DNA of 64,000 nt from an uncultured Clostridia bacterium (GCA_947628085.1 CANQYM010000005.1:3919-67918), one strand, 5' to 3'; positions 2,590 through 46,465 are shown, numbered from the stretch's first letter. Made by a program: numbers and translations. The notes: generated from the sequence alone by a model not told the origin.

Positions 2590-3632
2590 TTTTAAAAGGC
2601 TTAATTACTTTAATTATATTTGTTATAGCTCCATTTTTATTAGGAGTATTAGTAACAAATTTTCTTGAAAAAGAAAAAAATAATTTGTTATTTGCAATAT
2701 TAATTGGTTATTTAGTAGAATTTGCTATATGTGAGTTAATTTCTGTTCCAATGATTTTTTTGGGACGCAGTTTTAATTTTCTATTTGTTACTTATATACT
2801 TATAATTGGAATTTTAATGATTGCATCAATAATTGTAAATAGAAATAATTTTAAAGAAATGTTTTTTACTATAGTAAAAAACTTAAAAAATGTACCTAAA
2901 CTATTAAGTATTATTTGCATAATATTAGTTGTTTTTCAAATTTATATGTTTGTAGTTTACACACATATAGATGATGATGATGCTTTTTATATTGGCTCTA
3001 TTACTACAACCTTGCAAACAAATACATTATATAAATATTCTCCAACTACAGGGGCAACTTCAGGAGAGCACATGGATTTGAGATATAAATTAGCTCCTTT
3101 TCCATTATTTATGGCAATAGTTTCAAAACTAATTAATATGCATCCAGATATAGTATCACATATCATTTTTCCAATTTTTATGTTGCCAGTAATTTATAGT
3201 ATGTATTATCTTTTAGCAAAAGAATTTTTTAATGAAGACATAAAATCATCATTAATTTTTGTAATAATAATTAACATTTTAAATATGTTTAGTGGTTATT
3301 CAGTAAGAACTATTAGTGCATTCTTACTATTTCGTATATGGCAAGGAAAAGCTATACTTGCAAATTTAATGATGCCAGCAATAGTATTATTTATTTTGAA
3401 GGCAAATAAAAATGACTATAAATTTATATATTGCATTTTAATTATAATACTAACTCTAGCTTCAAATATTACAACAACTATGGCGATAGGATTAATACCA
3501 ATAGAAATAGCTGTAATTTTCTTTGTACTAGAATTTTCTGATTTTAAATTTAAAAGATTTTTTATAAATATGGGAAAAGCTATAATTTGTGCTATGCCAA
3601 GTCTTATTTATGGCTTAATATATTTTTTATAA
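2586..3632 (+). CDS. polytopic membrane protein (EpsG/GT-C-like?), unknown function
   Basis: The 348-aa protein is almost entirely TM helices. Its first loop has an acidic cluster (HIDDDDAFYIGS) that resembles the DD/DE motifs of GT-C glycosyltransferases. It overlaps the upstream stop codon by 4 bp (ATGA). Confidence 0.35.
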   Translation: MILKGLITLIIFVIAPFLLGVLVTNFLEKEKNNLLFAILIGYLVEFAICELISVPMIFLGRSFNFLFVTYILIIGILMIASIIVNRNNFKEMFFTIVKNLKNVPKLLSIICIILVVFQIYMFVVYTHIDDDDAFYIGSITTTLQTNTLYKYSPTTGATSGEHMDLRYKLAPFPLFMAIVSKLINMHPDIVSHIIFPIFMLPVIYSMYYLLAKEFFNEDIKSSLIFVIIINILNMFSGYSVRTISAFLLFRIWQGKAILANLMMPAIVLFILKANKNDYKFIYCILIIILTLASNITTTMAIGLIPIEIAVIFFVLEFSDFKFKRFFINMGKAIICAMPSLIYGLIYFL

Positions 3633-4467: not shown

Positions 4468-5460
4468 ATGAAAATATTAGTAACAGGTGGTTTAGGATTT
4501 ATTGGTTCACACACAGTAGTTGAACTTGCAAAGGAAAATAATGAAATAATTATTGTAGATAATTTATATAACAGCAAAATTGAAGTTTTAGAAAGACTAG
4601 AGAAAATTACTGGAAAAAAATTTAAATTTTATAGGTATGATTTATTAAATAAAGAAGATTTAGAAAAAGTATTTGAAGAAAATAAAATTGATAGTGTAAT
4701 ACATTTTGCTGGATATAAAGCAGTTGGAGAATCTGTAAAAAAACCATTAATGTATTATTCAAATAATTTAATGAGTACATTAAATCTGTTAAATATAATG
4801 AAAAAATATGATGTAAAAAAATTTATATTTAGTTCATCAGCAACTGTATATGGAAGCAGAGAAACAGCTATATGTATAGAGAGCATGGGAAGAGGAGAAA
4901 CATCTAATCCATATGGAACAACAAAGAGTATGATAGAGAAAATATTAGAAGATTTATATGCTTCAGATAATAGTTGGAACATTACTATTCTTAGATATTT
5001 TAATCCAGTAGGAGCACATGAATCTGGATTAATAGGAGAAGAACCAAATGGAATTCCAAATAATTTAATGCCATATATTATGAAAGTTGCATCAGGAAAA
5101 TTAGAAGTACTAAGTATATTTGGAGATGATTATCCAACACCAGATGGTACAGGAATAAGAGACTATATTCATGTTGTTGATTTAGCAAAAGGACATGTGA
5201 AAGCTTTAGAAAATATGAAACAAGGTTTAAACTATTATAATTTAGGTTCTGGAAAAGGCGTAAGTGTTTTAGAAATGGTAAAAACTTTTGAAAAAGTTAA
5301 TAATGTAAAAGTAAATTATAAAATAGTTGAAAGAAGAGCAGGAGATTTAGCAGAATGCTATGCAGATCCATCTAAAGCATTAAGAGAATTAAACTGGAAA
5401 ACAGAAAAAAGTTTAGAAGATATTTGCAGAGATGCTTGGAATTTTGAAAAAAATAATTAA
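4468..5460 (+). CDS. galE: UDP-glucose 4-epimerase
   Basis: The N-terminus carries the MKILVTGGLGFIGSH Rossmann motif. The protein is 330 aa and has the SDR YxxxK catalytic motif (YGTTKSM), with end-to-end similarity to GalE. Confidence 0.9.
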   Translation: MKILVTGGLGFIGSHTVVELAKENNEIIIVDNLYNSKIEVLERLEKITGKKFKFYRYDLLNKEDLEKVFEENKIDSVIHFAGYKAVGESVKKPLMYYSNNLMSTLNLLNIMKKYDVKKFIFSSSATVYGSRETAICIESMGRGETSNPYGTTKSMIEKILEDLYASDNSWNITILRYFNPVGAHESGLIGEEPNGIPNNLMPYIMKVASGKLEVLSIFGDDYPTPDGTGIRDYIHVVDLAKGHVKALENMKQGLNYYNLGSGKGVSVLEMVKTFEKVNNVKVNYKIVERRAGDLAECYADPSKALRELNWKTEKSLEDICRDAWNFEKNN

Positions 5461-5501: not shown

Positions 5502-5547
5502 AAAAGGTTAAAATGTTAAAAAAAGTTAACATTTTAACCTTTTTTTA
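5502..5547 (+). terminator. rho-independent terminator after galE
   Basis: A 16-bp perfect inverted repeat (AAAAGGTTAAAATGTT…AACATTTTAACCTTTT) is followed by T7. Confidence 0.6.
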
Positions 5548-21210: not shown

Positions 21211-22108
21211 AAAAGTTGCGGTTATAATGTCAACATATAATGGAGAAAAATATGTAGCAGAACAGCTTGATTCTATTATAAATCAAACATATAAAAACAT
21301 AGAAATAATTGTTAGAGATGATGGTTCTACAGATAGTACAGTAAATATTATAAAAAATTATCAAAAAACTTACGAAAATATTAAATTATATGAAGGCGAA
21401 AATATAGGTTTTATTAAAAGCTTTTTTGAACTTCTTAAAACAACTGAGGCAGATTATTATGCTTATGCGGATCAAGATGATGTGTGGATGGAGAATAAAA
21501 TAGAACTTGCAGTAGACTTATTAGATGAATTAGATGATTCTAAACCTAATATGGCTTTTGGAAATTCAGATTATTATGATGAAAATATGAAACTAATTTC
21601 AAAAGGTCCTAAAAATAGAAAATTTTCATTTCTAACAGCACTATTTGCTTGTGTAACTCAAGGAATGACAATGACTGTAAATAAAACAACTAGAGATATG
21701 ATAATAGAAAATACCCCCAGATCTTGTTTCTTCCATGATTGGTGGACATATCTTTTATGTATTGGACTTGGAAATGTAGCATATAGTAATGAAACAGTTG
21801 TAAAATATAGAAGAAGAAAAGAAAACGCAACATCAGAAGGTCAAGGATATATAAGATTATTAATTTGGAGAATAAAAAATCTTTTATTTAAAGATGGAAT
21901 GAGAGATATTAAACAACAAATGATAAACTTTAAAGACTATTATTATTATCAATTATCAGATGAAAATAAAAAAATTCTAGATTTATTTTCAGAAGAAGAC
22001 TATTCTTTTTCTAATGCTTGTAAAAAAGCTTTTTATAGAGCCAGAATTAGAACAAATATAATAGATGATTTGATGATAAGAATAATATTTTTAATAGGAG
22101 TTTTATAA
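21200..22108 (+). CDS. family 2 glycosyltransferase
   Basis: VAVIMSTYNGEKYVAEQLDSIINQT…RDDGSTDST…DQDD. The protein is 302 aa and is similar to the GT2 at 6464. Confidence 0.8.
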   Translation: MKDKKVAVIMSTYNGEKYVAEQLDSIINQTYKNIEIIVRDDGSTDSTVNIIKNYQKTYENIKLYEGENIGFIKSFFELLKTTEADYYAYADQDDVWMENKIELAVDLLDELDDSKPNMAFGNSDYYDENMKLISKGPKNRKFSFLTALFACVTQGMTMTVNKTTRDMIIENTPRSCFFHDWWTYLLCIGLGNVAYSNETVVKYRRRKENATSEGQGYIRLLIWRIKNLLFKDGMRDIKQQMINFKDYYYYQLSDENKKILDLFSEEDYSFSNACKKAFYRARIRTNIIDDLMIRIIFLIGVL

Positions 22109-23367
22109 TGAATTCAGAAAAAAAGGCTTTTTTGAAAAATTTTATTTGGAATAGTTTAGGTACAGGAATAAACTCTTTTAATTCATTATTTTTCTTAATA
22201 ATTGTAACAAGAGTAAATGATATTCAAACAGCTGGAATATTTTCAATAGCTTATGCAACAGCAACAATTCTTTACACTTTAGCTATGTATTCTGGCAGAC
22301 TTTGCCAAGTAACAGATATAGAAAATAAAATAAAAGATAAAGATTATATTGCAAACAGAGCACTTACTTGTTTCATAATGATAATAGGTGCAACAATTTT
22401 TTTGTGTTTAAAAAGATATTCGGGATTTAAAACTACAATTTTTGCATTACTTGCAATTTTTAAAGGACTAGAAGCTTTTTCAGATATTCTTTATGGTGTA
22501 ATGCAAAAAAATGATATTTTATATAAATCCGGACAATCTTTGTGTTTAAAAGGTTTCATAGGAATAATTCTATTTTTAATTGTAGATTTAGTAACAAGAG
22601 ATTTAAGACTTGCTTGTTTAGCTGTAATTATTGTAAATGTTGCAGTATTAATTATATATGATTATATTTTAATAACAAGAAAACTTATAGATAATAGTAG
22701 TAGAATAAATTATAAAAATGTTTTATCAATATTAAAAAGCGAATTTTTTGTATTTGTAAATTCTTTTGCAGGAATATATATTTTAAATGCCCCTAAATAT
22801 GCAATAGACAATTTTTTAACAGAGGACATTCAAGCGATATATGGTTACATAATGATGCCAGCTACTGTAATGACTTTATTCACACAATTCATAGTAATGC
22901 CTTTTTTAGGCAAAATGAAAGATATGTATGAGAAAAAAGATTTAAAACAACTAGAAGATGTTACTTTTAAAATAAAATTAGTTGTTATTGCATTTGGAGC
23001 TTTTGCAGTTTTAGCAGCATTCTTATTAGGACCAGAATTTTTAGGATTAATATATGGTTTAGATTTAACAGCATACAGAATGAACTTATGTGTAATAATT
23101 GGATCATATATATTCTATGCAATTTCATATATAAATTTAGTAACTTTAACAACAATAAGACATACATTTGTACAGTTTGTAATTTATGTTATTTCAATGG
23201 TTATAGCTTTCACTGGTTCAAATGTTTTAGTTAGAGTTTTAAACTTAGGAATAAATGGTGCAACTTTTTCATGCACAACAACACTTGCAATACAATTTAT
23301 AATGTATACAACAGTTACAAAAATAATTATTCACAAAGAAAATAAAAAATTAGAAGAGCAAAAATAA
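22108..23367 (+). CDS. Wzx-like oligosaccharide flippase (MOP superfamily)
   Basis: The 419-aa protein has 12 TM helices and an N-terminus typical of polysaccharide biosynthesis/Wzx proteins. The start overlaps the upstream stop (ATAATG). Confidence 0.65.
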   Translation: MNSEKKAFLKNFIWNSLGTGINSFNSLFFLIIVTRVNDIQTAGIFSIAYATATILYTLAMYSGRLCQVTDIENKIKDKDYIANRALTCFIMIIGATIFLCLKRYSGFKTTIFALLAIFKGLEAFSDILYGVMQKNDILYKSGQSLCLKGFIGIILFLIVDLVTRDLRLACLAVIIVNVAVLIIYDYILITRKLIDNSSRINYKNVLSILKSEFFVFVNSFAGIYILNAPKYAIDNFLTEDIQAIYGYIMMPATVMTLFTQFIVMPFLGKMKDMYEKKDLKQLEDVTFKIKLVVIAFGAFAVLAAFLLGPEFLGLIYGLDLTAYRMNLCVIIGSYIFYAISYINLVTLTTIRHTFVQFVIYVISMVIAFTGSNVLVRVLNLGINGATFSCTTTLAIQFIMYTTVTKIIIHKENKKLEEQK

Positions 23368-23431
23368 ATTATTTATAAAATTAAGTAGCTAAAACAAAAG
23401 ATAGAAAATATAAAAATAAAAGGAGAAAGAA

Positions 23432-25615
23432 ATGGAGATTTTATACATAATAACATTAATATTACTTGGAATAAGTTTTATGATGTTTAAAAAATCAGAA
23501 GAAAAAATAAACTTCATTAAATGGCTAATAATTTATATTGTTTCACTATTTGGATACAATGTTTTTATTGGAATGCTTTTAGGCTTACTTAACATTACAT
23601 CACATTTATGGCTTTTATCAATTATAAACATAGCTTTTGCAATTCTTTTAGGATTTAAAGCTATAAAAAATAAAGATTTTCAAAAATATTATGTAAGAAA
23701 ATTAGATATAATTTCTATCATTTTTGTTTTAGTGATTTTTGCAGTAATGTTTGTAAAAGATTTATATATCTTTAATGGAGATATATCTCATATGGCAATG
23801 GATTCAGCTATACATTATAGAGCTGCAAAACATTATGCAGACAATTTAAAAATATTTATAAATGTAGAAGACAAAACATTTTTCAATTTTAATGTAATGC
23901 AAACAGGTGCATACATAAATGATGGAATTTTCATGAATGTAATACATGGAATTACTGGAATAGGTCATGAGTATTTGTTTCAAGCATTTGAAACAATGGT
24001 GCTATTTTTAAGCGGACTTTCATTTTATGCATTCTTTGGTGAAAGAATTAAAACTAAACGAGGATTAGTAGCAAGTTTAGTATTATTTGCTTTATATATA
24101 TATGGATATCCATATAATTCTTGGTTTTATGGATTTTCATATTTATCAGTTGGAATAATGATGGTAGCAATTTTGTTACCAATTACTGAATGCTTATATT
24201 CAGAAGAGAAAATTACAAAAAAATTAACAATACCTTTAATTGTTTTGGCAGGAACAGGATTAATTTTCTCATATTGTTTATTTGTGCCAGCAGTTTTTTC
24301 TGCAATATGCATTTACTGTTTCTTAAAAGATATTACTTCAAAAGAAGGAAAAAAATATTTAAAGTTTTTCAAGAAAACAACTTTAATTGTAACTGGGCTA
24401 CTTTTACTAGTTACAGCTGTTGGAATTGGTTACATAGTTGTTCCAACATTCTTTATAGAGGGACAAACCAAATTAACTGAAGCTATAAAACTTGAAGGAG
24501 CAATATATTCTGGAACTTATGAAAACTTAATTCCATATACACCATTTTTAGTTTTATTCTTGGTACAATTAGTAAAAAGAATAAAAAATAAAAGCCTAAG
24601 ATTTTTAGATGTTTTTTCTGTTTTTATAATGGGATATTTAGCACTTCTAATGTTAGGAGTACAATATAATTTAGCATCAAAATACTATATGTATAAAGTA
24701 TATTTTATAATGTGGCTAGTTACATTTAGCATAACAATAGATTACATAAATGAAAATGTAGATAAGAAAATATTTAGAATTGATGCAATAATCATATTTA
24801 TGATATATGTTTTCTTTACAACAAAAGCTATCGCAGTTATAACAAACATTAACATATCAAATCCAGGCAAATATTCAATGAACGATTTATACAATATGTT
24901 TATTGAAAATCTATTTACAATACATGATTTATTAATGTTTTTATTGCTTGCATTTTTCACTGTTTTGCCTCAATTAATAGATAAAATTAATTTAAGTAAA
25001 ATAACAGAAAAATTATCAAGCAAATTTAAATCTGAAAAAATTAAAAATTTATTAAATAAAATATCTGTAATAGAAATTAAAAGAATATGCATATCTGGAT
25101 ATATTTATGTAATTCTTTGGGGCGTATTTGTTTGCGGTTGGGTTTGGTTAAAAGCAGGATTAATAATAAGTGAAGATACAAAACATAATTTGCCAAATCT
25201 TGTTGGAATTTATTATGAAGAAAACTGTAACAACAGAAAATTAGTAGATTTAACTCAAAATCTTAATTCAAATCAAATTAAATTAATTAAATATGCAAGA
25301 GAAAACTTTAAAGATATGACAGTTGAAAATACAGAACTTATGACAAAAGGATACTATCCTAGAGTTTGGTCAACAGCAATGCTAGAATTTTCAAGTGAAA
25401 AAGTTAGATATGAAAATGTTATTCAAGATACAAACATCTATACTTTAAAAGATGCTTTAGAGGACAGTGAGAAAAAATATATAGTAAAATTAGTTTCTAG
25501 AGATGCAAATGATTTAAAAGAATATCAAGAGGAATTAAAAGATGTAAAACAAACAGAAAATGTTGAAATACTTTTAGAGAACGAAAACGGTTATGTAGCT
25601 AAGATTAATAGATAA
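23432..25615 (+). CDS. large polytopic membrane protein with C-terminal soluble domain (uncharacterised, GT-C-like candidate)
   Basis: The 727-aa protein has about 13 TM helices and a roughly 170-aa C-terminal domain. It is paralogous to the next gene (MQTGAYIN, YPYxSxxYGFSYLSV). Both share a first-loop D[SA][AS][IM]HY motif. Confidence 0.4.
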   Translation: MEILYIITLILLGISFMMFKKSEEKINFIKWLIIYIVSLFGYNVFIGMLLGLLNITSHLWLLSIINIAFAILLGFKAIKNKDFQKYYVRKLDIISIIFVLVIFAVMFVKDLYIFNGDISHMAMDSAIHYRAAKHYADNLKIFINVEDKTFFNFNVMQTGAYINDGIFMNVIHGITGIGHEYLFQAFETMVLFLSGLSFYAFFGERIKTKRGLVASLVLFALYIYGYPYNSWFYGFSYLSVGIMMVAILLPITECLYSEEKITKKLTIPLIVLAGTGLIFSYCLFVPAVFSAICIYCFLKDITSKEGKKYLKFFKKTTLIVTGLLLLVTAVGIGYIVVPTFFIEGQTKLTEAIKLEGAIYSGTYENLIPYTPFLVLFLVQLVKRIKNKSLRFLDVFSVFIMGYLALLMLGVQYNLASKYYMYKVYFIMWLVTFSITIDYINENVDKKIFRIDAIIIFMIYVFFTTKAIAVITNINISNPGKYSMNDLYNMFIENLFTIHDLLMFLLLAFFTVLPQLIDKINLSKITEKLSSKFKSEKIKNLLNKISVIEIKRICISGYIYVILWGVFVCGWVWLKAGLIISEDTKHNLPNLVGIYYEENCNNRKLVDLTQNLNSNQIKLIKYARENFKDMTVENTELMTKGYYPRVWSTAMLEFSSEKVRYENVIQDTNIYTLKDALEDSEKKYIVKLVSRDANDLKEYQEELKDVKQTENVEILLENENGYVAKINR

Positions 25616-25668
25616 AATATTTTATAGATTTTTCAAAAATCTAAATTAAATTTAAGGAAGAAAATAAA

Positions 25669-27507
25669 ATGGGAATTTTTTATGCCTTAACAGTTTTGGT
25701 AATGCTTGTTATTTTTGTAATTGTAAAGAAAAGTGACAAGAGATTAAATTTAGTAAGTTGGATTATATTATCTTTAATTTCTTATTTAGGATTTAATATT
25801 TTAGTATGCATGGTATTTGGAGCCATGAATATTACAACAAACTTACTATTCTTATCAATAAGTAATTTAGTTGTAGCTTTAGGACTTGGATTTAAAATAT
25901 TTAAAGATAAAAAAATTCAAAAATTTGAAATAAGAAAAAGAGATTTTATAGCAGTTATAGTTGCTTGTGCTATTGTTTGTTATATGGCAGTTAATCAATA
26001 TAAACCTCTTGCAAAAACGATGGCAAATGCTTCTGTGGATGCTAGTATGCATTATAGTGCAACAATAAATTTTGCAAACAATATGAAAATTTTATCTAAA
26101 ATAGATAATCAAACTGGTTATAACTTTAAAACTATGCAAACAGGTGCATACATAAATACAGGAATTTTTATAAGTATGGTAAGAAGTATTCTTCCAAACT
26201 TTAGAGATTATGTAACATTTAAAATTTTTGAAATGGGAATATTGCTTCTTAACATATTGGCATTTTATATGCTAATATCAGACAAACTAGAAACAAAAGG
26301 AAATTTTGTATTTGGTATATTATTTTTAATTTTATATGGATTTGCATATCCATATACTAGTTTATTATATGGATTTTCATATTTAAGTGTAGCAATTGCT
26401 TTTGCAACAGGATTATTTTACTTAGCAAAAATTTATGATAACCGAAAAGTTAATTTTCCAACAATGCTAAGTTTAATAATACTTATGGGAGTTGGAATAA
26501 TCTTTTCATATTGTTTATTTGTTCCAGCACTATTTGCATTTATTTGTATATATGTATTTTTAAAAGACAAGAAAAAAGAAGAAAAATCTTATTTAAAATT
26601 TTTCAAAAAATCAACTCTTTTAGTTACAGGACTACTTTTAATTGTAACAGCTTTAGCAATATGTTATTTAGTAATTCCAACATTTACAGATAGTGATCAA
26701 AATAAATTAACAGATGCAATTGGATTTGTTGGTGGAAGCTATAAGTCTTTATATCAAGATTTCTTGTTTTATATACCTTTTGTAGTTTTATTTATATATA
26801 AATCTATAAAAAATAAAGATTTAAATTTTCAAGTAGTAGCATTAGCATTACTTGTATTTCAAACAGTTATAACATTTTTAGGATTAGTAAATGGAATAGT
26901 ATCAAGCTACTATTACTATAAAATTTATTATATAATTTGGATTTTATTAGCAGATATTGCTGTTGAAGTTCTATGCAGCATGAAAGATAATAAAGAATTA
27001 GGAGTAGTTTTAAAAACAGCAACAGTAATATGGGTTTGCATAATTTGTTTTGCAATTGGCGGATATGAAGAAAAATTATATGCTAAAAATCCTACAATAA
27101 TGGATACACCAGCAGAACTAAGACTTTCAAAATTAGCTGGAATTTACTATGATACAAATATTTTTGGCATAAAAAATATTAATGCTTCTTGTTTAGTAAA
27201 TCAATACAGGCTTGAGCTTGCAGAACAAATGGGAAAACAGGAAGATATGACACTAAAAAATATGTTAGTTGGTGGAATGAATACTAATTGCAAAGCTTGG
27301 ATGTATGTTGTTTCTGGAATTACATCAGGCGGTGAATCAATAAATGATTTGCAAGTTGCAGTTGTAGAAACTAATGTAGATGATTGGATGAAAAAAGAGG
27401 ATAAAAAATATTTTGTTCTATATGATGAGTCAAATACTTATGAAAATACTGATGATTATGAAGTAGTTTTCAGTAATAGTGCAGGAGTTATTTTAAAGAA
27501 GAAATAA
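25669..27507 (+). CDS. paralogous polytopic membrane protein with C-terminal soluble domain (uncharacterised)
   Basis: The 612-aa protein is about 35-40% identical to the preceding gene across the TM region and has the same domain order. Confidence 0.4.
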   Translation: MGIFYALTVLVMLVIFVIVKKSDKRLNLVSWIILSLISYLGFNILVCMVFGAMNITTNLLFLSISNLVVALGLGFKIFKDKKIQKFEIRKRDFIAVIVACAIVCYMAVNQYKPLAKTMANASVDASMHYSATINFANNMKILSKIDNQTGYNFKTMQTGAYINTGIFISMVRSILPNFRDYVTFKIFEMGILLLNILAFYMLISDKLETKGNFVFGILFLILYGFAYPYTSLLYGFSYLSVAIAFATGLFYLAKIYDNRKVNFPTMLSLIILMGVGIIFSYCLFVPALFAFICIYVFLKDKKKEEKSYLKFFKKSTLLVTGLLLIVTALAICYLVIPTFTDSDQNKLTDAIGFVGGSYKSLYQDFLFYIPFVVLFIYKSIKNKDLNFQVVALALLVFQTVITFLGLVNGIVSSYYYYKIYYIIWILLADIAVEVLCSMKDNKELGVVLKTATVIWVCIICFAIGGYEEKLYAKNPTIMDTPAELRLSKLAGIYYDTNIFGIKNINASCLVNQYRLELAEQMGKQEDMTLKNMLVGGMNTNCKAWMYVVSGITSGGESINDLQVAVVETNVDDWMKKEDKKYFVLYDESNTYENTDDYEVVFSNSAGVILKKK

Positions 27508-35479: not shown

Positions 35480-36472
35480 ATGAACTTTATAGAAACTATT
35501 AAAGAAAGAGCAAGAAACAATATTAAAAAAATTGTTTTACCAGAGGCTTCAGATTTAAGAACAATTAAGGCAGCAGAAATTGCATTAAAAGAAAAATATG
35601 CAGAAATTGTTTTAATAGGAAATAAAGAAAAAGTACTAAAGTTAGCAGAAGAAAACAATGTAGATATATCAAATGCAACAATAGTAGATCCTTTAAGTTC
35701 TGAAAAAAGAGAAAACTACGCAAATGAATTATACGAATTAAGAAAAGCAAAAGGAATGACTTTAGAACAAGCAGATGAGCTTATAAAAGATGAAGTATAT
35801 TTTGGAATGATGATGGTCAAAATGGGAGATGGCGATGGACTAGTATCAGGAGCTATTCACTCATCATCAGATACTTTAAGACCAGCACTTCAAATTTTAA
35901 AAACTGCACCAGGAACTAAACTTGTTTCAGCATTCTTTTTAATGGTTGTTCCAAACTGTGAGTATGGAGAAAATGGAGTTTTTGTTTTTGGAGATTGTGG
36001 ATTAAATCAAAATCCAACAGCTGAGGAATTAGCAGAAATAGCACATTCTTCTAAAGAAAGTTTCGAACATTTAGTAGGAAAAGAATCTAGAGTTGCTATG
36101 CTTTCTTATTCTACAAAAGGAAGTGCTAAATCAGACCTTACACAAAAAGTTATTGATGCAACAAATATGGTAAAAGAAAGATATCCAGAAATTAAAGTAG
36201 ATGGAGAACTACAATTAGATTCAGCAATAATTCCAGAAGTTGCTAAAAGTAAAGCACCAGATAGCACAATTGCAGGATATGCAAATACATTAATATTTCC
36301 AGATTTAAATGCAGGAAATATTGGATATAAATTAACTCAAAGATTAGCAAAAGCAGAAGCATATGGACCTCTTTGCCAAGGAATAGCAAGACCAGTAAAT
36401 GATTTATCAAGAGGATGCTCAGCAGAAGATATAGCAGGTGTTATAGCAATAACTGCTGTTCAAGCACAATAA
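35480..36472 (+). CDS. pta: phosphate acetyltransferase
   Basis: The 330-aa protein is class-I Pta similar along its whole length (…GNIGYKLTQRLAKAEAYGPLCQGIARPVNDLSRG…) and lies upstream of ackA. Confidence 0.9.
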   Translation: MNFIETIKERARNNIKKIVLPEASDLRTIKAAEIALKEKYAEIVLIGNKEKVLKLAEENNVDISNATIVDPLSSEKRENYANELYELRKAKGMTLEQADELIKDEVYFGMMMVKMGDGDGLVSGAIHSSSDTLRPALQILKTAPGTKLVSAFFLMVVPNCEYGENGVFVFGDCGLNQNPTAEELAEIAHSSKESFEHLVGKESRVAMLSYSTKGSAKSDLTQKVIDATNMVKERYPEIKVDGELQLDSAIIPEVAKSKAPDSTIAGYANTLIFPDLNAGNIGYKLTQRLAKAEAYGPLCQGIARPVNDLSRGCSAEDIAGVIAITAVQAQ

Positions 36473-36547
36473 AGAGCTTTATTTTAAGTTATTACTTAAA
36501 GTACAAATGAATATAATGAAAATATATTAAACTTTGGGAGGAATAAA

Positions 36548-37747
36548 ATGAAAATCTTAGTAGTAAATTGTGGAAGTTCATCACTAAAATATCAATTAAT
36601 AGATATGCAAGATGAAAAACTTCTAGCAAAAGGAAATTTTGAAAGAATAGGAGAAAAAGAAGCATTTGTTACACATAAAGTTGGAGGAGAAAAATATGTA
36701 ATAAAATCTCCTGTAATGAATCATGAAGAAGCTTTAAAAATTGTTCTTGAACAACTAGTTCATAAAGATTATGGTGTTATAAAAAATTTATCAGAAATTT
36801 CAGCAGTAGGACATAGATTAGTTCATGGTGGAGAGATATTTGATAAATCTGTTATTATAGATGAAGATGTAATTGAAAAATATGCTTCTTGTTCTAGTTT
36901 AGCACCACTTCATAATCCAGCAACAATACTTGGAATAAGGGCATGTCAAAAAGCAATGCCAGGAATTCCAATGGTTGGAGTATTCGATACAGCTTTTCAT
37001 CAAACAATGCCAAAAGAAAATTATTTATATCCTATTCCTTATGAATATTATGAAAAATATGGAATAAGAAAATATGGATTTCATGGAACATCTCATCAAT
37101 ATGTATCAAAAAGATGTGCTGAATTAGTTGGAAAACCAATTGAAAAATTAAAAATAGTAACTTGTCATTTAGGACAAGGTGCATCAATTTGTGCAATAGA
37201 TGGAGGAAAATCTATTAATACTTCTATGGGACTTTCACCTTTAGGAGGAATAGCAATGGTTACTCGTTCAGGAGACTTAGATCCATCAGTTGTTACAGAA
37301 ATAATGGAAAGAGAAAACTTAACTCCTAAAGAAGTAAATACTCTTTTAAATAAAAAATCTGGACTATACGGAATAACAGGGTTAAATCCAGACTTTAGAG
37401 AAATAGAACTTGCATCTTATGAAGATGACAAACCAAAAGCAAAAGTTGCAATAGAATTATTTACCAAAACAATAGCTGAATTTGTTGCAAAATATGCTGT
37501 ATCTTTAAAAGGAATAGATTGTCTAGTGTTTACTGGAGGTATTGGAGAAAATCAAATAAATATTAGAAAAAAAATATGTGAAGACTTAGAATGGATGGGA
37601 GTAAAATTAGATCTAGAAAAAAATAATGTAAGAAGTGAAGAAAGAAAAATTTCAACAGAAGATTCTAAAATACTAACTTATATAATTCCAACAGATGAAG
37701 AAATGGTTATTGCAAGAGATACAAAATCATTAGTAGAAAGTTTATAA
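36548..37747 (+). CDS. ackA: acetate kinase
   Basis: The protein starts MKILVVNCGSSSLKYQL and has the VGHRLVHGG, AFHQTMP, HGTSHQY and E384-equivalent catalytic residues. It is 399 aa. Confidence 0.9.
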   Translation: MKILVVNCGSSSLKYQLIDMQDEKLLAKGNFERIGEKEAFVTHKVGGEKYVIKSPVMNHEEALKIVLEQLVHKDYGVIKNLSEISAVGHRLVHGGEIFDKSVIIDEDVIEKYASCSSLAPLHNPATILGIRACQKAMPGIPMVGVFDTAFHQTMPKENYLYPIPYEYYEKYGIRKYGFHGTSHQYVSKRCAELVGKPIEKLKIVTCHLGQGASICAIDGGKSINTSMGLSPLGGIAMVTRSGDLDPSVVTEIMERENLTPKEVNTLLNKKSGLYGITGLNPDFREIELASYEDDKPKAKVAIELFTKTIAEFVAKYAVSLKGIDCLVFTGGIGENQINIRKKICEDLEWMGVKLDLEKNNVRSEERKISTEDSKILTYIIPTDEEMVIARDTKSLVESL

Positions 37748-37776
37748 AATATTTAAATTTATAGGGGGAAGTTCTT

Positions 37777-38976
37777 ATGAAAGTATTAGTATTAAACTGT
37801 GGAAGCTCATCTTTAAAATGTCAGTTAATAGACATGGAAAAAAACGAAAGAATAATGAAAGGTCATTATGATAGAATAGGTGGTTCAAGATCATCACTTA
37901 GATTTAATGTAAGAGGCAATAAAACAGTTATTGAACACCCTGCTAGAGACTTTGAAGAAGCAATATCAGAAATTTTAAATCTATTAGTAAGCAAAGAATT
38001 TGGAGCAATTGAAAGCTTTGATGAAATTGGAGCAGTAGGACATAGAATAGTTCATGGTGGTGAAAAATTTAAGAATTCAGTTCTTATAGATGATGAAGTT
38101 ATTAAAGCAATTGAAGATTGTGTTACTCTAGCACCACTTCATAATCCAGCTGGACTTGCTGGAATAGATGCTTGTAGAAAATTATTACCAAATACCCCAA
38201 TGGTAGCTGTATTTGATACATCTTTCCATCAAACTATGGAAGAAAAAGCATTTATTTATCAATTGCCATATAAATATTATGAAGACTATAAAATTAGAAA
38301 ATATGGTTTTCATGGAATATCACATAGATATGTAGCAGGAAGAATAGCAGAGTTGCTACATAACGAACATTTAAAAGTAATAAATTGCCATTTAGGACAA
38401 GGTGCATCACTTTGTGCAATAAAAGATGGAAAATCTGTAGATACTACTATGGGATTAACACCTCTTGCTGGAATACCAATGGGAACAAGATCTGGAGATG
38501 TTGATCCATCTATTATTCCAACAGTAATGAAACTATATGATATAAAACCAGATGAAATGCTTAGAATATTAAATAAAGAATCAGGAGCATGGGGCGTATC
38601 TGGAGTTTCAACAGATTTTAGAGATATTGAAAGAACTGCAGCAGCAGGAGATGAAAGATCAATATTAGCTCTAGAAAGTAGAGCATACATAATTGCCCAA
38701 TATATTGCAAAATTTATAGTTACTTTAAATGGTGTTGATGTTATTACTTTTGCTGGTGGTGTAGGTGAAAATGGTTTCGAAGAAAGAGAAAGAATTTGTA
38801 ATTATCTAGAATGTTTTGGTATTAAACTAGATAAGGAAAAAAATAAAATAAGAGGAGAAGAAGCTGAAATTTCAGCAGACAACTCAAAAGCAAAAATATA
38901 TATTGTACCAACAAACGAAGAAATATTAATAGCACAAGATACTTATGAATTAGCTAAAAAGGTAAAAAATAAATAA
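37777..38976 (+). CDS. acetate/propionate kinase family paralog 2
   Basis: The protein starts MKVLVLNCGSSSLKCQL. It is 399 aa, retains all catalytic residues (N7, R91, H180, R241, E384 equivalents), and is about 45% identical to ackA. Confidence 0.8.
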   Translation: MKVLVLNCGSSSLKCQLIDMEKNERIMKGHYDRIGGSRSSLRFNVRGNKTVIEHPARDFEEAISEILNLLVSKEFGAIESFDEIGAVGHRIVHGGEKFKNSVLIDDEVIKAIEDCVTLAPLHNPAGLAGIDACRKLLPNTPMVAVFDTSFHQTMEEKAFIYQLPYKYYEDYKIRKYGFHGISHRYVAGRIAELLHNEHLKVINCHLGQGASLCAIKDGKSVDTTMGLTPLAGIPMGTRSGDVDPSIIPTVMKLYDIKPDEMLRILNKESGAWGVSGVSTDFRDIERTAAAGDERSILALESRAYIIAQYIAKFIVTLNGVDVITFAGGVGENGFEERERICNYLECFGIKLDKEKNKIRGEEAEISADNSKAKIYIVPTNEEILIAQDTYELAKKVKNK

Positions 38977-39070
38977 TATTAAATTTTATTAAAAGATAAT
39001 TTAATATATGAATTAATTATGATATTTCTAAAAGTCAATATAAAATAAGCTTTTTAAAGAAAGGATTTTT

Positions 39071-40258
39071 ATGAAAATATTAGTTTTAAATTGCGGTAGT
39101 TCTTCACTAAAATTTCAACTTATAGATATGAAAAATGAAGAAACAATGGCAAAAGGAAATTTTGAAAGAATAGGTGGAATGAAAACAACTCTTAAATTAA
39201 ATGTAAGAGGAAAAAAAGAGGAATTACTTCACATAGCAAGAGATTTTGATGAAGCAATTGAATTTGTTTTAGAAGTTTTACAAAAGCCAGAATATAAATT
39301 AATAAAAAATTTAAAGGAAATTAAAGCAGTAGGACACAGAATTGTTCATGGCGGAGAAATGTTTAGTTCTTCTGTTTTAATAAATGATGAAGTTATAGAA
39401 GAAATAGAAAAATGCATTGACTTAGCTCCACTTCATAATCCAGCTGGAGTTGCAGGAATAAAAGCAGCTAGAAAAGTTTTACCAAATGTTCCAATGGTTG
39501 CAGTTTTCGACACAGCATTTCATCAAACTATGGAGCCTAAAGCTTATGTATATCAAATACCATATAGATATTATACAAGCTATAAAATTCGTAAATATGG
39601 TTTTCATGGAACAAGTCACAAATATGTAGCTCAAAGAATTTGTGAATTAGAAGGAAAAAACAAAAAATTAATAAATTGCCATTTAGGACAAGGTGCATCA
39701 CTTTGTGCAATAAAAGATGGAAAATCTATAGACACATCTATGGGATTAACACCTCTTGCAGGAATTCCTATGGCAACAAGATGTGGGGATATAGACCCTG
39801 CAATAATACCATATATTATGAAAAGAGATAATTTAGGACCAGAAGATATAGAAGAAGTTCTAAATAAGCAATCAGGAGCATGGGGCGTATCTGGAGTTTC
39901 AACGGACTTTAAAGATATTGAAGACGGATATAATATGGGAGACCAGAGATCTATTTTAACTTTAGATAACCAAGCATATAAAATTGCACAATATATAGGA
40001 GAATATATGATATCTCTTGGCGGATTAGATGTTTTAACTTTTGCTGGTGGAGTTGGAGAAAACGGAATAGAAACAAGAGAAAGAGTTTGCAAATATTTAG
40101 AACCTTTTGGAGCTAAATTAGATTTAAAAGCAAATAAAGTAAGAGGAAAAGAAGTTTGCATTTCTGCTCCAGATTCTAAAATAAAAATTTATGTTATTCC
40201 AACAAATGAAGAATTAATGATAGCAAAAGAAACTTATGAAATTGTAAATAATAAGTAA
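39071..40258 (+). CDS. acetate/propionate kinase family paralog 3
   Basis: The protein starts MKILVLNCGSSSLKFQL and is 395 aa. It is most similar to paralog 2 (SGAWGVSGVSTDF[KR]DIE, NCHLGQGASLCAIKDGKS). Confidence 0.8.
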   Translation: MKILVLNCGSSSLKFQLIDMKNEETMAKGNFERIGGMKTTLKLNVRGKKEELLHIARDFDEAIEFVLEVLQKPEYKLIKNLKEIKAVGHRIVHGGEMFSSSVLINDEVIEEIEKCIDLAPLHNPAGVAGIKAARKVLPNVPMVAVFDTAFHQTMEPKAYVYQIPYRYYTSYKIRKYGFHGTSHKYVAQRICELEGKNKKLINCHLGQGASLCAIKDGKSIDTSMGLTPLAGIPMATRCGDIDPAIIPYIMKRDNLGPEDIEEVLNKQSGAWGVSGVSTDFKDIEDGYNMGDQRSILTLDNQAYKIAQYIGEYMISLGGLDVLTFAGGVGENGIETRERVCKYLEPFGAKLDLKANKVRGKEVCISAPDSKIKIYVIPTNEELMIAKETYEIVNNK

Positions 40259-42001: not shown

Positions 42002-42120
42002 TAAAATATCTCCTTATAAATTAATATGTAATATATTATAGCTTTAAGTTAAAAAAGTCAATTATTTAGTGTATTTATATTTTTCAACTAGAATATTTAT
42101 ATTTTTAGCTAATAAGTTTT

Positions 42121-42268
42121 TATCTGATTAAATATATCTTTATTAGTGACTTGGTGTCGCAATCTTCTTTTTTAAAATAAAACAAAAGGAAGATTGCTCC
42201 AATCGCCCTTCGCTTACGCTTCGGTTGGTCGCTTACGCGTCACTTATAAAGATATATTTAATCACATA
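42121..42268. repeat. 148-bp imperfect palindromic element with GC-rich core in the rqcH/pgi divergent intergenic region
   Basis: Terminal inverted repeats GATTAAATATATCTTTAT(T/A)AGTGAC at 42126-42150 and 42239-42263 have 1 mismatch, or about 30 bp with 2. The core is roughly 55% GC in a 27% GC genome and holds an inner 9-bp hairpin GCAATCTTC…GAAGATTGC. A 10-bp direct repeat TCGCTTACGC occurs at 42210-42219 and 42229-42238. Confidence 0.6.
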
Positions 42269-42340
42269 AAAACTATTTAGAAAATTAATATAACTAATAA
42301 AATTTTTGTTAAAAAATTTCACATAAAAAACATATAATTT

Positions 42341-42361
42341 TTGCAAAGCATGTGATATAAT
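42341..42361 (+). promoter_or_regulatory. candidate extended -10 promoter for pgi
   Basis: TGaTATAAT at 42353-42361 has no good -35. It lies about 25 bp upstream of the pgi ORF. Confidence 0.3.
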
Positions 42362-42386: not shown

Positions 42387-43727
42387 ATGAAAGGAGAGTA
42401 TGATGAAAAATCATACAAAAATATTATGGTTAGATTTAATTTAGAAAATTCAGGTTTACAAGAAAAGATGATTAATGAATATAGTGGTGAAGTTAGCAAA
42501 ATACATAAAAAACTTCATAAAAATGCAAATGAAGAAACAGAATTTTTAGGATGGATTGAACTTCCAACAAATTATGATAAAACAGAGTTTAATAGAATAA
42601 AAAAAGCCGCTAAAAAAATACAAAAGGATTCAGATGTATTAGTTGTTATAGGAATAGGTGGATCTTATTTAGGAGCTAGAGCAGTTATAGATAGTTTGTC
42701 ACATACTTTTTATAATTCTATGCCAGAAAGAAAAAGAAAGATGCCTCAAATTGTTTATGCTGGAAATAATTTAAGTCCAGTTTATATGAATGATTTATTA
42801 GAATTTGTTTCAGATAAAGATATTTCTATAAATGTAATTTCAAAATCAGGAACTACAACAGAGCCTGCCATTGCATTTAGAATTTTTAGAGAAGTTCTAG
42901 AAACAAAATATGGAGTAGATGAAGCAAGAAAAAGAATTTATGTTACAACAGATAAGCAAAGAGGAGCTTTAAAAACATTATCAAATGAAGAAAAATATGA
43001 AACTTTTGTTATTCCAGATAATATAGGTGGAAGATTTTCAGTTCTTACAGCTGTTGGATTACTTCCAATAGCAGCAGCTGGAATAAATATAGATAAATTA
43101 ATGGAAGGAGCAAGAAAAGCACAAGAAGCTTATTCAGATTCTAATTTAAAGAAAAATGATTGCTATAAATATGCAGTTGCAAGAAATTTACTATATAAAT
43201 CAGGAAAGACAATAGAAATTTTAGCAAACTATGAACCAAAACTTCATTATTTTACAGAATGGTGGAAACAACTTTATGGAGAAAGTGAAGGAAAAGATTT
43301 AAAAGGTATTTTCCCAGCTGGTGTTGATTTAACTACAGACCTACATTCAATGGGACAATATATTCAAGATGGAAAAAGAGATTTAATAGAAACAGTATTA
43401 AAAGTAAAAGAAAATGAATCTGAAATCACTATTCAACCAGATGACCAAAACTTAGATGGTTTAAATTATTTGGCTGGAAAAACTTTAGGATATGTTAATA
43501 ATAAAGCTATGGAAGGAACAGTTCAAGCACATGTTACAGGAAAAGTTCCAAACTTTATGGTACAAATAGACAGATTAGATGAAGAAAATATTGGAGAATT
43601 AATTTATTTCTTTGAAAAAGCTTGTGCAATGTCTGGTTCAATATTAGGAGTAAATCCTTTCAATCAACCAGGTGTAGAAGAATATAAAAAGAATATGTTT
43701 AAACTTCTAAAAAAACCAGGATATTAA
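42387..43727 (+). CDS. pgi: glucose-6-phosphate isomerase
   Basis: The 446-aa protein is a Firmicute-type Pgi with ([15 protein letters not shown]…, [14 protein letters not shown]). The true start may be the ATG at 42426, because a GGAGAG RBS-like sequence lies inside the first codons. Confidence 0.9.
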
Positions 43728-44415: not shown

Positions 44416-46465
44416 ATGGTAGATTTAGAAAAAAATATACAATACATAAAAGGAGTAGGACCTAATCGTGCTACTCTTTTAAATAAATTAGGTATTTTTT
44501 CTTTAAAAGACCTTATAACTTATTTCCCACGTGAATATGAAGATAGAGGAAAACCCAAAAAAATTGCTGAAGTTGTAGATGGTGATGAAGCTTTAATTTA
44601 TGCATATCCAGTTGGAAGAGTGAATGAAGTAAGAATTAGAAAAAATCTTATGATAAGTAAATTAATAGTTAGAGATGAAACTGGAAGTATGCTTGTTACT
44701 TGGTATAATAAATCTTATTTAAAAAACATTTTTAAGCCAAATGTAGAATATAAATTTTATGGGAAAATATCTAGAAAATATGGAAGACCAGAAATGCAAG
44801 AGCCTGTATATGAAGAAAAAATTTTTGAAAAAAATACAGGTAAAATAATTCCAATATATCCTCTTACATATAACTTATCTCAAAATGTTATTAGAAAAAT
44901 AATAGAAAGTGGATTAAATGAAGTTAAAGGAAAGCTAGATGAAACTTTACCAGAATACATATTAAAAAAATATAATTTATATGATTATAATACTGCAATT
45001 CATCAAATACATTTTCCAGAAACTTTTGAAAGTTTTAGTTTAGCTAAAAAAAGATTAGTTTTTGAGGAACTTTTTTCTATGCAACTTGCGCTTTTAAGCT
45101 TAAAAAATAAATATGAAATTAAAAAGCAAGGAATTGCATTTAGTAAAGAAGCAAAAATGTCAGAAATAATAGATAAATTGCCATTTAAACTAACAAAAGC
45201 ACAGCTTAGAGTTCTAGAAGAAATAGATAAGGACATGGAAAGTGATAAACCAATGAATAGATTAATGCAAGGAGATGTTGGCTCTGGAAAAACAGTTGTT
45301 GCATTAATTTCTGCATATAAAGCAGTAAAATCAGGTTATCAAGCTGTTATAATGGCACCAACTGCAATACTTGCATCACAACATTTAGAAAGCTTTAATG
45401 AAATTTTAAAAGAAACTGGAATAAGATGCGAGCTTTTAATTAGCGGAATTTCTAAAAAGAAAAAAGAAGATATATTAAAACGATTAGAAGATGGAGAAAT
45501 AGATATTTTAATAGGAACACATGCAGTTTTAGAAGAAAATGTTGTGTTTAAAAATTTGGGATTAGTAGTTACAGATGAGCAACATAGATTTGGAGTTAGA
45601 CAAAGAAGCATAATAGTAGAAAAAGGAACAAATCCAGATGTTTTAGTTATGACAGCAACACCAATTCCAAGGACTTTAGCATTAATTCTATATGGAGATT
45701 TAGACATATCTATTATTGATGAGCTTCCTCCAAACAGAAAAAAGATAGAAACGTATGCTGTTACAAAAGGAATGGAACAAAGGGTAAATAACTTTATTAC
45801 TAAAAATATTGAAGAAGGTAGACAATGCTACATAGTTTGCCCATTAGTAGAAGAAAATGAAGAAATAAATGCAAAATCTGTAATGGAGATTTATGAAAAT
45901 TATAAAAATAATGTTTTTCCACAGTTTAGGGTAGAATATTTGCATGGTAAAATGAGACCAAAAGAAAAAGACGAAATAATGGAAAGATTTAAAAATGGAG
46001 AAATAGACATTTTAGTTTCTACTACTGTTATAGAAGTTGGTGTAAATGTTCCAAATAGCAACATTATGGTTATTCAAAATGCAGAAAGATTTGGGTTAGC
46101 TCAACTTCATCAATTAAGAGGAAGAGTTGGACGTCGGAGAATATCAGTCTTATTGTATTTTAAAATATCAAGGAAATTCACAAATCATAAGAGAAAGAAT
46201 GAAAGTTATTTCAAGCACAAATGATGGATTTGTTATTTCTGAAAAAGACTTAGAACTAAGAGGTTCAGGAGAATTTTTTGGAACAAGGCAACATGGTATA
46301 CCAGAATTTAAAATCGCTAATTTATTTGAAGATGTGGGAATGTTAAAACAGGTTCAAGGCGTTGTGTTAGAAATAATAGACAAAGATCCACTACTTGAAA
46401 AAGAAGAGAATAAATTACTAAAAAAATTAGTTGATGATAAATTTAAAGATAGAATAGAAATATAA
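44416..46465 (+). pseudogene. recG: ATP-dependent DNA helicase RecG, split by +1 frameshift near the C-terminus in this sequence
   Basis: The N-terminal wedge domain (MVDLEKNIQYIKGVGPNRATLLNKLGI) and helicase motifs (GDVGSGKT, DEQHRFG, QLRGRVGR) are present. ORF1 ends …GRVGRRRISV…*. Deleting C46135 (CGT-c-GGA) gives …RGRVGRGEYQSYCILKYQG… and a continuous roughly 682-aa RecG. Confidence 0.85.

Follow-up and report, generated by a model that had tools for sequence, protein, structure and literature searches.

A palindromic insertion with an apparently invertible core between rqcH and pgi in uncultured gut Clostridia

The spacer between the divergent genes rqcH and pgi of an uncultured rabbit-gut Clostridia bacterium contains a small non-coding palindromic element, the core of which appears to be an invertible DNA segment because both of its orientations are found at the same site in close relatives. 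The element was studied within a window of 64 kb, the whole stretch of DNA that was analysed. An earlier annotation of this DNA, made without database searches and referred to below as the sequence-only reading, had drawn attention to the palindrome and assigned the flanking genes to rqcH and pgi, in agreement with our Pfam results. The inversion of the core is a property new relative to that reading. Judging from the spacers of related contigs, the element as a whole is a lineage-specific insertion, which sister lineages do not carry. We classify it as a new member of the intergenic elements, invertible or mobile, that are bounded by inverted repeats.

Results

Architecture, composition, and folding of the palindrome

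A repeat search identified two arms of 42 nt that are 90% complementary and separated by a spacer of 88 nt, the core (Table 1). The inner 25 nt of the arms (42126-42150 and 42239-42263) differ by a single mismatch and have the sequence GATTAAATATATCTTTAT(T/A)AGTGAC, which the sequence-only reading had recognized as near-perfect inverted repeats; the complete arms are longer than it had stated. This sequence was present at just two sites in the 64-kb window, the two arms, for 0 expected by chance. Among the inverted repeats of the window with a spacer of at most 400 bp, the rqcH-pgi palindrome is the longest. The remaining inverted repeats of the window are terminator-like hairpins or low-complexity sequence.

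Table 1. Coordinates of the palindromic element, its parts, and the neighbouring genes and promoter-like sites in the window.
Feature	Position	Strand	Basis
Lineage-specific insertion, ~250 bp	42067..42317		Alignments and spacers of L006, L014, and L017 compared with the window
Left arm, 42 nt	42109..42150		90% complementary to the right arm, repeat search
Right arm, 42 nt	42239..42280		Repeat search
Left copy of the 19-bp TGATTAAATATATCTTTAT, same in both arms; includes the 11-mer TGATTAAATAT	42125..42143		Mapping of arm mismatches across the window, L002, and L005
Right copy (reverse complement) of the 19-bp stretch	42246..42264		Mismatch mapping
Minimal inverted segment, 102 bp (core plus inner 7 nt of each arm), with mismatch positions 42144 and 42245	42144..42245		Cores of relatives
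Core, 88 bp, 43% GC	42151..42238
Bulged hairpin with AT-rich loop; lower stem TTGG/CCAA, upper stem GCAATCTTC/GAAGATTGC	42151..42202
31-nt GC-rich motif AGCGACCAACCGAAGCGTAAGCG[A/G/T]AGGGCGA	42203..42233	-	L013 metagenome match, alignment, and scan of every locus for the motif
Two direct copies of TCGCTTACGC(T/G)TC (42210-42222 and 42229-42241)	42210..42241	+	Repeat search
rqcH, NFACT family, 571 aa	40286..42001	-	Pfam PF05833 and PF05670 (NFACT_N, NFACT-R_1)
pgi; probable start ATG 42426, mechanical ORF from 42387	42426..43727	+	PF00342; homologues of 433 aa
rqcH promoter-like site TTGACT, 17 nt, TAATAT; outside the element	42033..42061	-	Consensus scan; -35 region kept in L006, L014, and L017
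pgi promoter-like sites TTAAAA, 18 nt, TATAAT (42309-42338) and extended -10 TGTGATATAAT (42350-42360); outside the element	42309..42360	+
Weak candidate hybrid promoter GCGACA (-35-like, hairpin end of core), 18 nt, TATATT (-10-like, arm)	42131..42160	-	Consensus scan, 9/12

The GC content of the window is 25.4% (25% for the genome), slightly different from the value of about 27% first proposed for the surroundings of the element. The GC content increases to 34% in the 148-bp span of the palindrome and to 43% in the 88-bp core. A value above 50%, as previously reported for the core, was obtained only for its 3' 48 nt (58% GC), which are the maximum of the window. The full palindrome displayed a very high folding potential in comparison with shuffled sequences (z = -9.2 and -10.2 for RNA, and -8.8 for DNA). 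The core without the arms was modestly structured (z of about -2.2 on either strand).

The repeat search also recovered the inner hairpin of the core (GCAATCTTC...GAAGATTGC) and the direct repeat TCGCTTACGC, both of which had been noticed in the sequence-only reading. The direct repeat is present in two copies of 13 nt with 92% identity, and the heptamer CGTAAGC is confined to these two copies in the 64-kb window. The 31-nt motif could fold into a small hairpin, CC-GAA-GC-GUAA-GC-GNA-GG. The outer part of the arm, TCA[C/G]ATAAAAAC, is similar to the native sequence TTCACATAAAAAAC located immediately upstream of pgi (repeat search). This resemblance hints that part of the arms may derive from a duplication of local sequence near pgi.

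Inversion of the core among close relatives

Close relatives were defined as contigs with an identical or near-identical Pgi. They originated from rabbit-gut metagenomes (samples ERZ27249512, ERZ27249555, ERZ27249446, and ERZ27060145) and from the MAG GCA_947601495.1 (uncultured Clostridia bacterium, Lapin-005 bin45), which is the species representative. L002 and L010 are one contig, and L004 is partial. The core was in the orientation of the window in L001, which is identical to the window, and in L005. The opposite orientation was found at the same site in L002/L010, in L003, and in the partial contig L004. Each orientation was present in at least two independent assemblies. The cores of L002 and L003 matched the core of the window at 84 of 90 positions as the reverse complement, compared to 46 of 107 positions in the forward direction. 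BLAST comparison of the window with its relatives returned the element as a minus-strand match within plus-strand flanks. The overall identity of the relatives ranged from 94 to 98% (94.5% for the window versus L002 and about 98% for L002 versus L005), and the opposite orientations divide lineages that are 2-6% apart in sequence. An additional contig, L041, displayed a different upstream context.

The position of the residual differences between the arms provided information on the extent of the inversion. In the flipped relatives, the inner T/A mismatch of the arms (42144 and 42245) changed sides along with the core, whereas the outer differences (left arm, TAATAAG; right arm, AAATAG or TAATAG) were fixed in place in all lineages compared. 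Thus, the centre of the palindrome (at least 102 bp, 42144-42245) was inverted in place, with no re-insertion of the whole element. The strand exchange leading to inversion occurred within a 19-bp exchange zone, TGATTAAATATATCTTTAT, which is identical in both arms. The orientations were compared on assembled contigs, and short-read assemblers with k of at least 21 should be unable to confuse the two orientations since the longest perfect repeat stretch is 19 bp. One or a few historical flips would suffice since the orientation differs between lineages that have diverged by 2-6%.

Between the window and the L002 lineage, the inner arms and all non-loop positions of the core were unchanged except for one variable position of the motif. 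In the close relatives compared, the remaining core substitutions were all located in the loop of the hairpin, the stems being invariant. This variation was too low for a covariation test.

Presence and absence of the element in the rqcH-pgi spacer

Comparison of the rqcH-pgi spacer among relatives, an approach already advocated in the sequence-only reading, revealed that the element is present or absent depending upon the lineage, in addition to the occurrence of its core in both orientations. The spacers of the sister lineages L014 to L016 (RqcH 95% identical) and L017 (82% identical) contained 46 and 25 bp of unrelated AT-rich filler, respectively, and that of L006 contained 0 bp of filler. 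The -35 region of rqcH and the promoter region of pgi were retained in all of these lineages. In comparison to these empty sites, the edges of the ~250-bp insertion (about 42067-42317) were not clean. Neither the edges of the arms nor those of the core are flanked by target-site duplications in the window, and comparison with the empty sites did not reveal any. An empty palindrome, in which the arms would be abutted without the core, was absent from the relatives, and the lineages devoid of the core were also devoid of the arms.

A related element at an unrelated locus

A 22-mer from the core was used to search JGI metagenomes and matched a single contig, L013. The matching element is located between the co-directional obg and acyltransferase genes of rumen bacteria. 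Its arms are perfect over 15 nt (CAAAATATTTAATCA and TGATTAAATATTTTG) and located 163 nt apart. In the obg-acyltransferase spacer of L013, L018, L022, and L023, 30 of the 31 positions of the GC-rich motif are the same as in the window. The motif is followed, on the same strand and at the same relative position, by a bulged hairpin with an AT-rich loop that is unrelated in sequence. The window and L013-type elements have the core motif in common and differ in their full arm sequences. The 11-mer TGATTAAATAT is common to the arms of both elements, and the two arms of the rqcH-pgi element hold its only copies in the 64-kb window (0.67 copies expected). With respect to the core, the 11-mer has one polarity in the window element and the reverse polarity in the L013-type element, an observation that is compatible with a recombinase site but not with a transposon end. 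On the basis of the common motif, the rqcH-pgi and L013-type elements appear to form a small, previously undescribed sequence family, for which the query strings are AGCGACCAACCGAAGCGTAAGCGNAGGGCGA (mismatches allowed) and paired TGATTAAATAT arms. The near-identity of the motif at two unrelated loci with diverged surroundings, together with the unchanged core of the close relatives, points to a sequence-specific function or to recent horizontal spread.

The L013-type element was in one orientation throughout, in four complete (L013, L018, L022, and L023) and three partial (L019 to L021) assemblies. It was absent from L024 to L026, in which the acyltransferase is 98% identical, and from a relative displaying 73% identity. 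Strains lacking the element carry the sequence of its right arm natively. Directly after the stop codon of obg, L031 to L034, L038, and L039 retain about 60 nt (GCTGCGGTTGGTTGCTGAAGATACGCCTTTACTCGCTTATTAAAT) from the right end of the L013-type element as a decayed remnant (for example at positions 1760-1830 of L031). The presence of the remnant in a relative with a 77%-identical acyltransferase indicates that the L013-type element is old at the obg locus.

Additional observations were made on these contigs. A 7-nt direct repeat is located just inside both arms of the L013 element (5380-5386 and 5537-5543; plus strand, ACGAGTA and ACGAGTG; opposite strand, ACTCGTT). This repeat, which may reflect a duplication or chance, has no counterpart in the window element. 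Three independent Logan assemblies (L019, L020, and L021) break at the same base, which is the boundary of the motif, between GGTCGCT and GAGCGCGCC. The metaSPAdes contig L004 begins at the first base of the core of the rqcH-pgi element. These contig ends suggest the presence of a repeat or variant junction in the corresponding samples. Finally, a 58-bp indel containing a hairpin (TCTTGTAATATAGACGTAAGTTGTATGATTTAATGCAAGA...) is located upstream of lexA in L013 (~2600-2780, minus strand) and in L018, L022, and L023 (~4600-4700), and is absent from L019, L020, and L024. The indel holds CGTAAG and GATTTAAT strings that are reminiscent of the element.

Searches for additional copies, RNA families, and recombination enzymes

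No second copy of the arms or of the core was found in the 64-kb window. In a search of a genome collection with the 19-mer of the arms, a paired match was only obtained in MAG GCA_947601495.1, at one locus, indicating that there is no regulon of sites sharing these arms. The five other matches of the 19-mer, all single and in unrelated taxa, were attributed to chance. One of them, in an Oscillospiraceae contig (L009), is located within coding-like sequence of normal GC content and has no partner arm. An nhmmer profile search of about 300 kb of examined DNA did not reveal any further copies, including diverged ones. Exact-pattern scans of viral contigs with the arm and core motifs gave 0 matches, and BLAST searches of plasmids and phages returned only short AT-rich or chance matches. 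A 34-nt motif match in a Rhizobium plasmid was considered as fortuitous, as the intergenic spacer in which it lies is an ordinary one and no insertion sequence is found in its vicinity.

Recombinases, integrases, and transposases were not detected among the approximately 44 ORFs of the window (Pfam and NCBIfam), nor in the examined flanks of the relatives or of L013. The mobile or insertion origin considered in the sequence-only reading was therefore only partially borne out. It is in agreement with the absence of the insertion from sister lineages and with the related element at an unrelated locus, but not with the absence of a target-site duplication and of a transposase, nor with the presence of the arms at one locus of the representative genome with no flanking duplication.

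Other known types of sequence were considered. Rfam cmscan at E-values up to 10, which had been recommended as a check, returned only noise for the window and L013-type elements. ARAGORN detected no tRNA or tmRNA in the element, as anticipated in the case of tRNA. A coding function was rejected since no ORF is conserved between the window and L013-type elements. Comparison by eye with dif/Xer sites, attC, hix, MOBQ oriT, ssoA origins, and group II intron domain V did not reveal any convincing fit. The terminal repeats of the IS66 family begin with GTAAGCG (PMC11946415, PMC12888890), a heptamer that occurs twice in the core. Descent from IS66 was rejected, and the resemblance attributed to chance, because both copies lie at a single end, in direct orientation. 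An inverted partner, the 8-bp duplication that is part of the family definition (PMC11946415), and a transposase are all missing, and the conserved motif continues on both sides of the heptamer.

Promoter-like sequences of the rqcH-pgi region

The element had been thought to occupy the promoter positions of rqcH and pgi. The best promoter-like sites of both genes are located outside the element and are kept in relatives lacking it, based for pgi on the alignment of L006, L014, and L017. In the interior of the element, a consensus scan revealed no convincing promoter or terminator. In particular, no T run characteristic of intrinsic terminators follows the hairpins on either strand. The weak hybrid promoter formed by the core and the arm was not significant (7 sites of 9/12 in the region for 4.6 expected). 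It is directed towards rqcH in the window and would be directed towards pgi in the flipped form. A consensus scan indicated that it is not conserved in the L013-type element.

The ATG at 42426 is the most likely initiation codon of pgi because the homologues comprise 433 aa. In the leader of the gene, the Shine-Dalgarno sequence (AGGAGAG, 42392-42398) is 27 nt upstream of this codon. The interval contains a 7-bp hairpin (GTATGAT, loop, ATCATAC; 42398-42416), the stem of which is also present in L014 and L017 with different loops; the spacing is normal in L006. The initiation codon of pgi is overlapped by an ORF of 15 codons that begins at ATG 42400. The leader may contain a structure-bridged ribosome-binding site or encode a leader peptide.

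Discussion

Comparison with invertons and with families of intergenic repeats

The rqcH-pgi element resembles invertons, such as those of the Mpi type in Bacteroides, fimS in Escherichia coli, and the RecV-dependent cwpV and flgB switches in Clostridioides difficile, since it is a short intergenic segment that has inverted repeats at its borders and occurs in either orientation at one locus. RecV and Mpi act in trans from elsewhere in the genome (Mpi is also cited in PMC11602134). In contrast to known invertons, the element has no recombinase in the 64 kb of the window or the examined flanks, and no clear internal promoter. It also differs by its housekeeping neighbours, which are not surface-structure genes, by orientations that are seen to differ only between lineages (assembled contigs), and by the association of a recent insertion with a conserved GC-rich module. 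The size of the element is typical, as more than 75% of the 10,983 invertons identified by PhaseFinder are shorter than 300 bases (PMC11602134).

The element shares several features with the Correia (Neisseria), ERIC (enterobacterial), and bcr1 (Bacillus cereus) families, including the absence of coding capacity, a size of approximately 150-170 bp, terminal inverted repeats of about 25 nt or more, a strong hairpin potential, an intergenic location, and presence or absence depending upon the strain. Correia, ERIC, and bcr1 are multi-copy families with defined target duplications. In contrast, the arms are single in the representative genome, no duplication is visible, and the two known members have a common core motif and different arms. 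With respect to the hallmarks of MITEs, terminal inverted repeats were found, but not target-site duplications or multiple copies of the arms in the representative MAG.

Proposed mechanism and alternatives

Our preferred explanation, proposed tentatively and with less than even confidence, is that the core is an inverton-type invertible segment carried by a lineage-specific MITE-like palindromic insertion located between the rqcH and pgi promoters. A recombinase encoded elsewhere in the genome would recognize the arms and catalyze the flip, with TGATTAAATAT, common to both types of elements, as a candidate recognition site. We infer that the enzyme would act in trans because the exchange zone is short (19 bp), the arms are conserved, and the 11-mer is present in both elements. 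Efficient RecA-dependent exchange usually needs roughly 23-27 bp, and the 19-bp zone is below that size. The conserved module of the core, comprising the 31-nt motif and the bulged hairpin, could act as an accessory or recognition sequence, or as a directional cargo. More speculatively, the hairpin end of the core could supply a -35-like box which, in combination with TATATT in either arm, would create a promoter reading out of the element, towards rqcH in the window and towards pgi in the opposite orientation. The effect on the expression of the two genes would probably be modest because each gene keeps its own promoter. The inverton-type explanation is weakened by the single orientation of the L013-type element, and by the housekeeping nature of rqcH and pgi, as invertons are reported to be often located near cell-surface genes (PMC11892184).

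Alternatively, the element could be a passive MITE-like palindromic insert that arrived once in the ancestor of the clade and has no host function. Its spacer would have undergone one or a few inversions through recombination between the inverted repeats or through replication template switching, and each orientation would have been fixed by lineage. This scenario is the main alternative, and we rate it only slightly below the inverton-type explanation. It would account for the presence or absence of the elements among close relatives at both loci, and for the restriction of the difference in orientation to lineages diverged by 2-6%. The lack of a recombinase nearby, the lack of a significant promoter or terminator in the element, and the decayed remnant in the 77%-identity relative, which is what junk DNA would leave, are also in its favour. 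Long arms separated by a short spacer are a known substrate of RecA-independent inversion. However, a passive insert does not readily explain why the inner arms and the non-loop core are unchanged, apart from one motif position, between lineages that are 94.5% identical, or why the 31-nt motif is nearly identical at two unrelated loci of different organisms amid diverged surroundings. In addition, the identical stretch of 19 bp is short for homologous recombination, target-site duplications were not found, the arms are single in the representative genome, and no other copy is present in about 300 kb. In another scenario, which is much less probable, the core with its short ends (WAGTGAC/GTCACTW) would be a small mobile unit inserted independently, in either orientation, in the centre of a pre-existing palindrome, the arms being the target. 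The flipped unit does end inside the arms, the module recurs elsewhere between arms of a different sequence, and the right arm of the L013-type element is native in strains without the element. Nevertheless, this scenario requires two independent events at the same nucleotide in sister lineages, relatives contain no empty palindrome, core-less lineages have no arms, and the boundaries of the core in the window carry no duplication.

The two remaining explanations, both raised in the sequence-only reading, attribute a conventional function to the palindrome. The core might be the gene of a structured small RNA, the arms being incidental, as suggested by the conserved GC-rich motif, which is conspicuous in a genome of 25% GC, and by the succession of a GNRA-capped (GUAA) hairpin and a second hairpin, an arrangement kept in the L013-type element despite sequence turnover. 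We regard a small RNA as improbable in view of the absence of an Rfam match for either element at E-values up to 10, the z value of about -2.2 of the core on either strand, the lack of a promoter and terminator pair, and the absence of the element from sister lineages. Least probable of all is a cruciform or operator co-regulating the divergent rqcH and pgi promoters. The symmetric position of the palindrome between the promoters and its very high hairpin potential fit this role. Such an operator is nonetheless very unlikely because the sister lineages manage both promoters, separated by 0 to 46 bp, without the element, and the related L013-type element is located between co-directional genes. 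The 88-nt loop is also unfavourable to cruciform extrusion.

Returning to the inverton-type explanation, its extension to the family is more speculative still. It is conceivable, although we consider it unlikely as a whole, that the 31-nt GC-rich motif and the bulged hairpin are the signature of a so far undescribed family of small palindromic elements, invertible and spreading horizontally among very AT-rich gut and rumen Clostridia, which would be flipped in trans by a recombinase via their TGATTAAATAT arms. The module would be an accessory site or a directional RNA or promoter cargo, leading to orientation-dependent expression of loci such as rqcH and pgi. Should an enzyme drive the flip reversibly, central metabolism (pgi) and ribosome quality control (rqcH) would come under phase variation in uncultured gut Clostridia, and the elements would define a new family of recombination sites and cargo that can be searched for in metagenomes. 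If the inversion is instead a fixed event in a selfish insert, the element would be a minor case of repeat-mediated rearrangement and would call for caution in the annotation of GC-rich islands in AT-rich genomes.

Additional observations on the window

The approximately 44 ORFs of the window encode a glycosyltransferase and ABC-transporter cluster, RlmN, a PP2C phosphatase, a PASTA kinase, Rpe, Pta, three acetate kinases, RqcH, Pgi, RecG, ArgS, an NRPS-like protein, and a two-component system. Within the glycosyltransferase cluster, three large consecutive ORFs (22108-27507; 419, 727, and 612 aa) had no match in Pfam or NCBIfam. The NRPS-like ORF (52233-54668), which encodes condensation and AMP-binding domains, is followed by an overlapping ORF of 1700 aa (54589-59691). 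The region 35480-40258 contains pta and, after it, three acetate kinase paralogues in tandem (36548-37747, 37777-38976, and 39071-40258). In the L002 and L005 lineage, a sortase gene is found upstream of rqcH in place of an acetate kinase paralogue, revealing a synteny break immediately beside the element. Finally, recG (44416-46465) is split into an ORF of 602 aa (44416-46224) and an overlapping or adjacent ORF of 88 aa (~46199-46465) encoding a RecG_dom3_C domain. The same split is present in L001, L002, and L005, indicating that it is conserved and does not result from a sequencing error.
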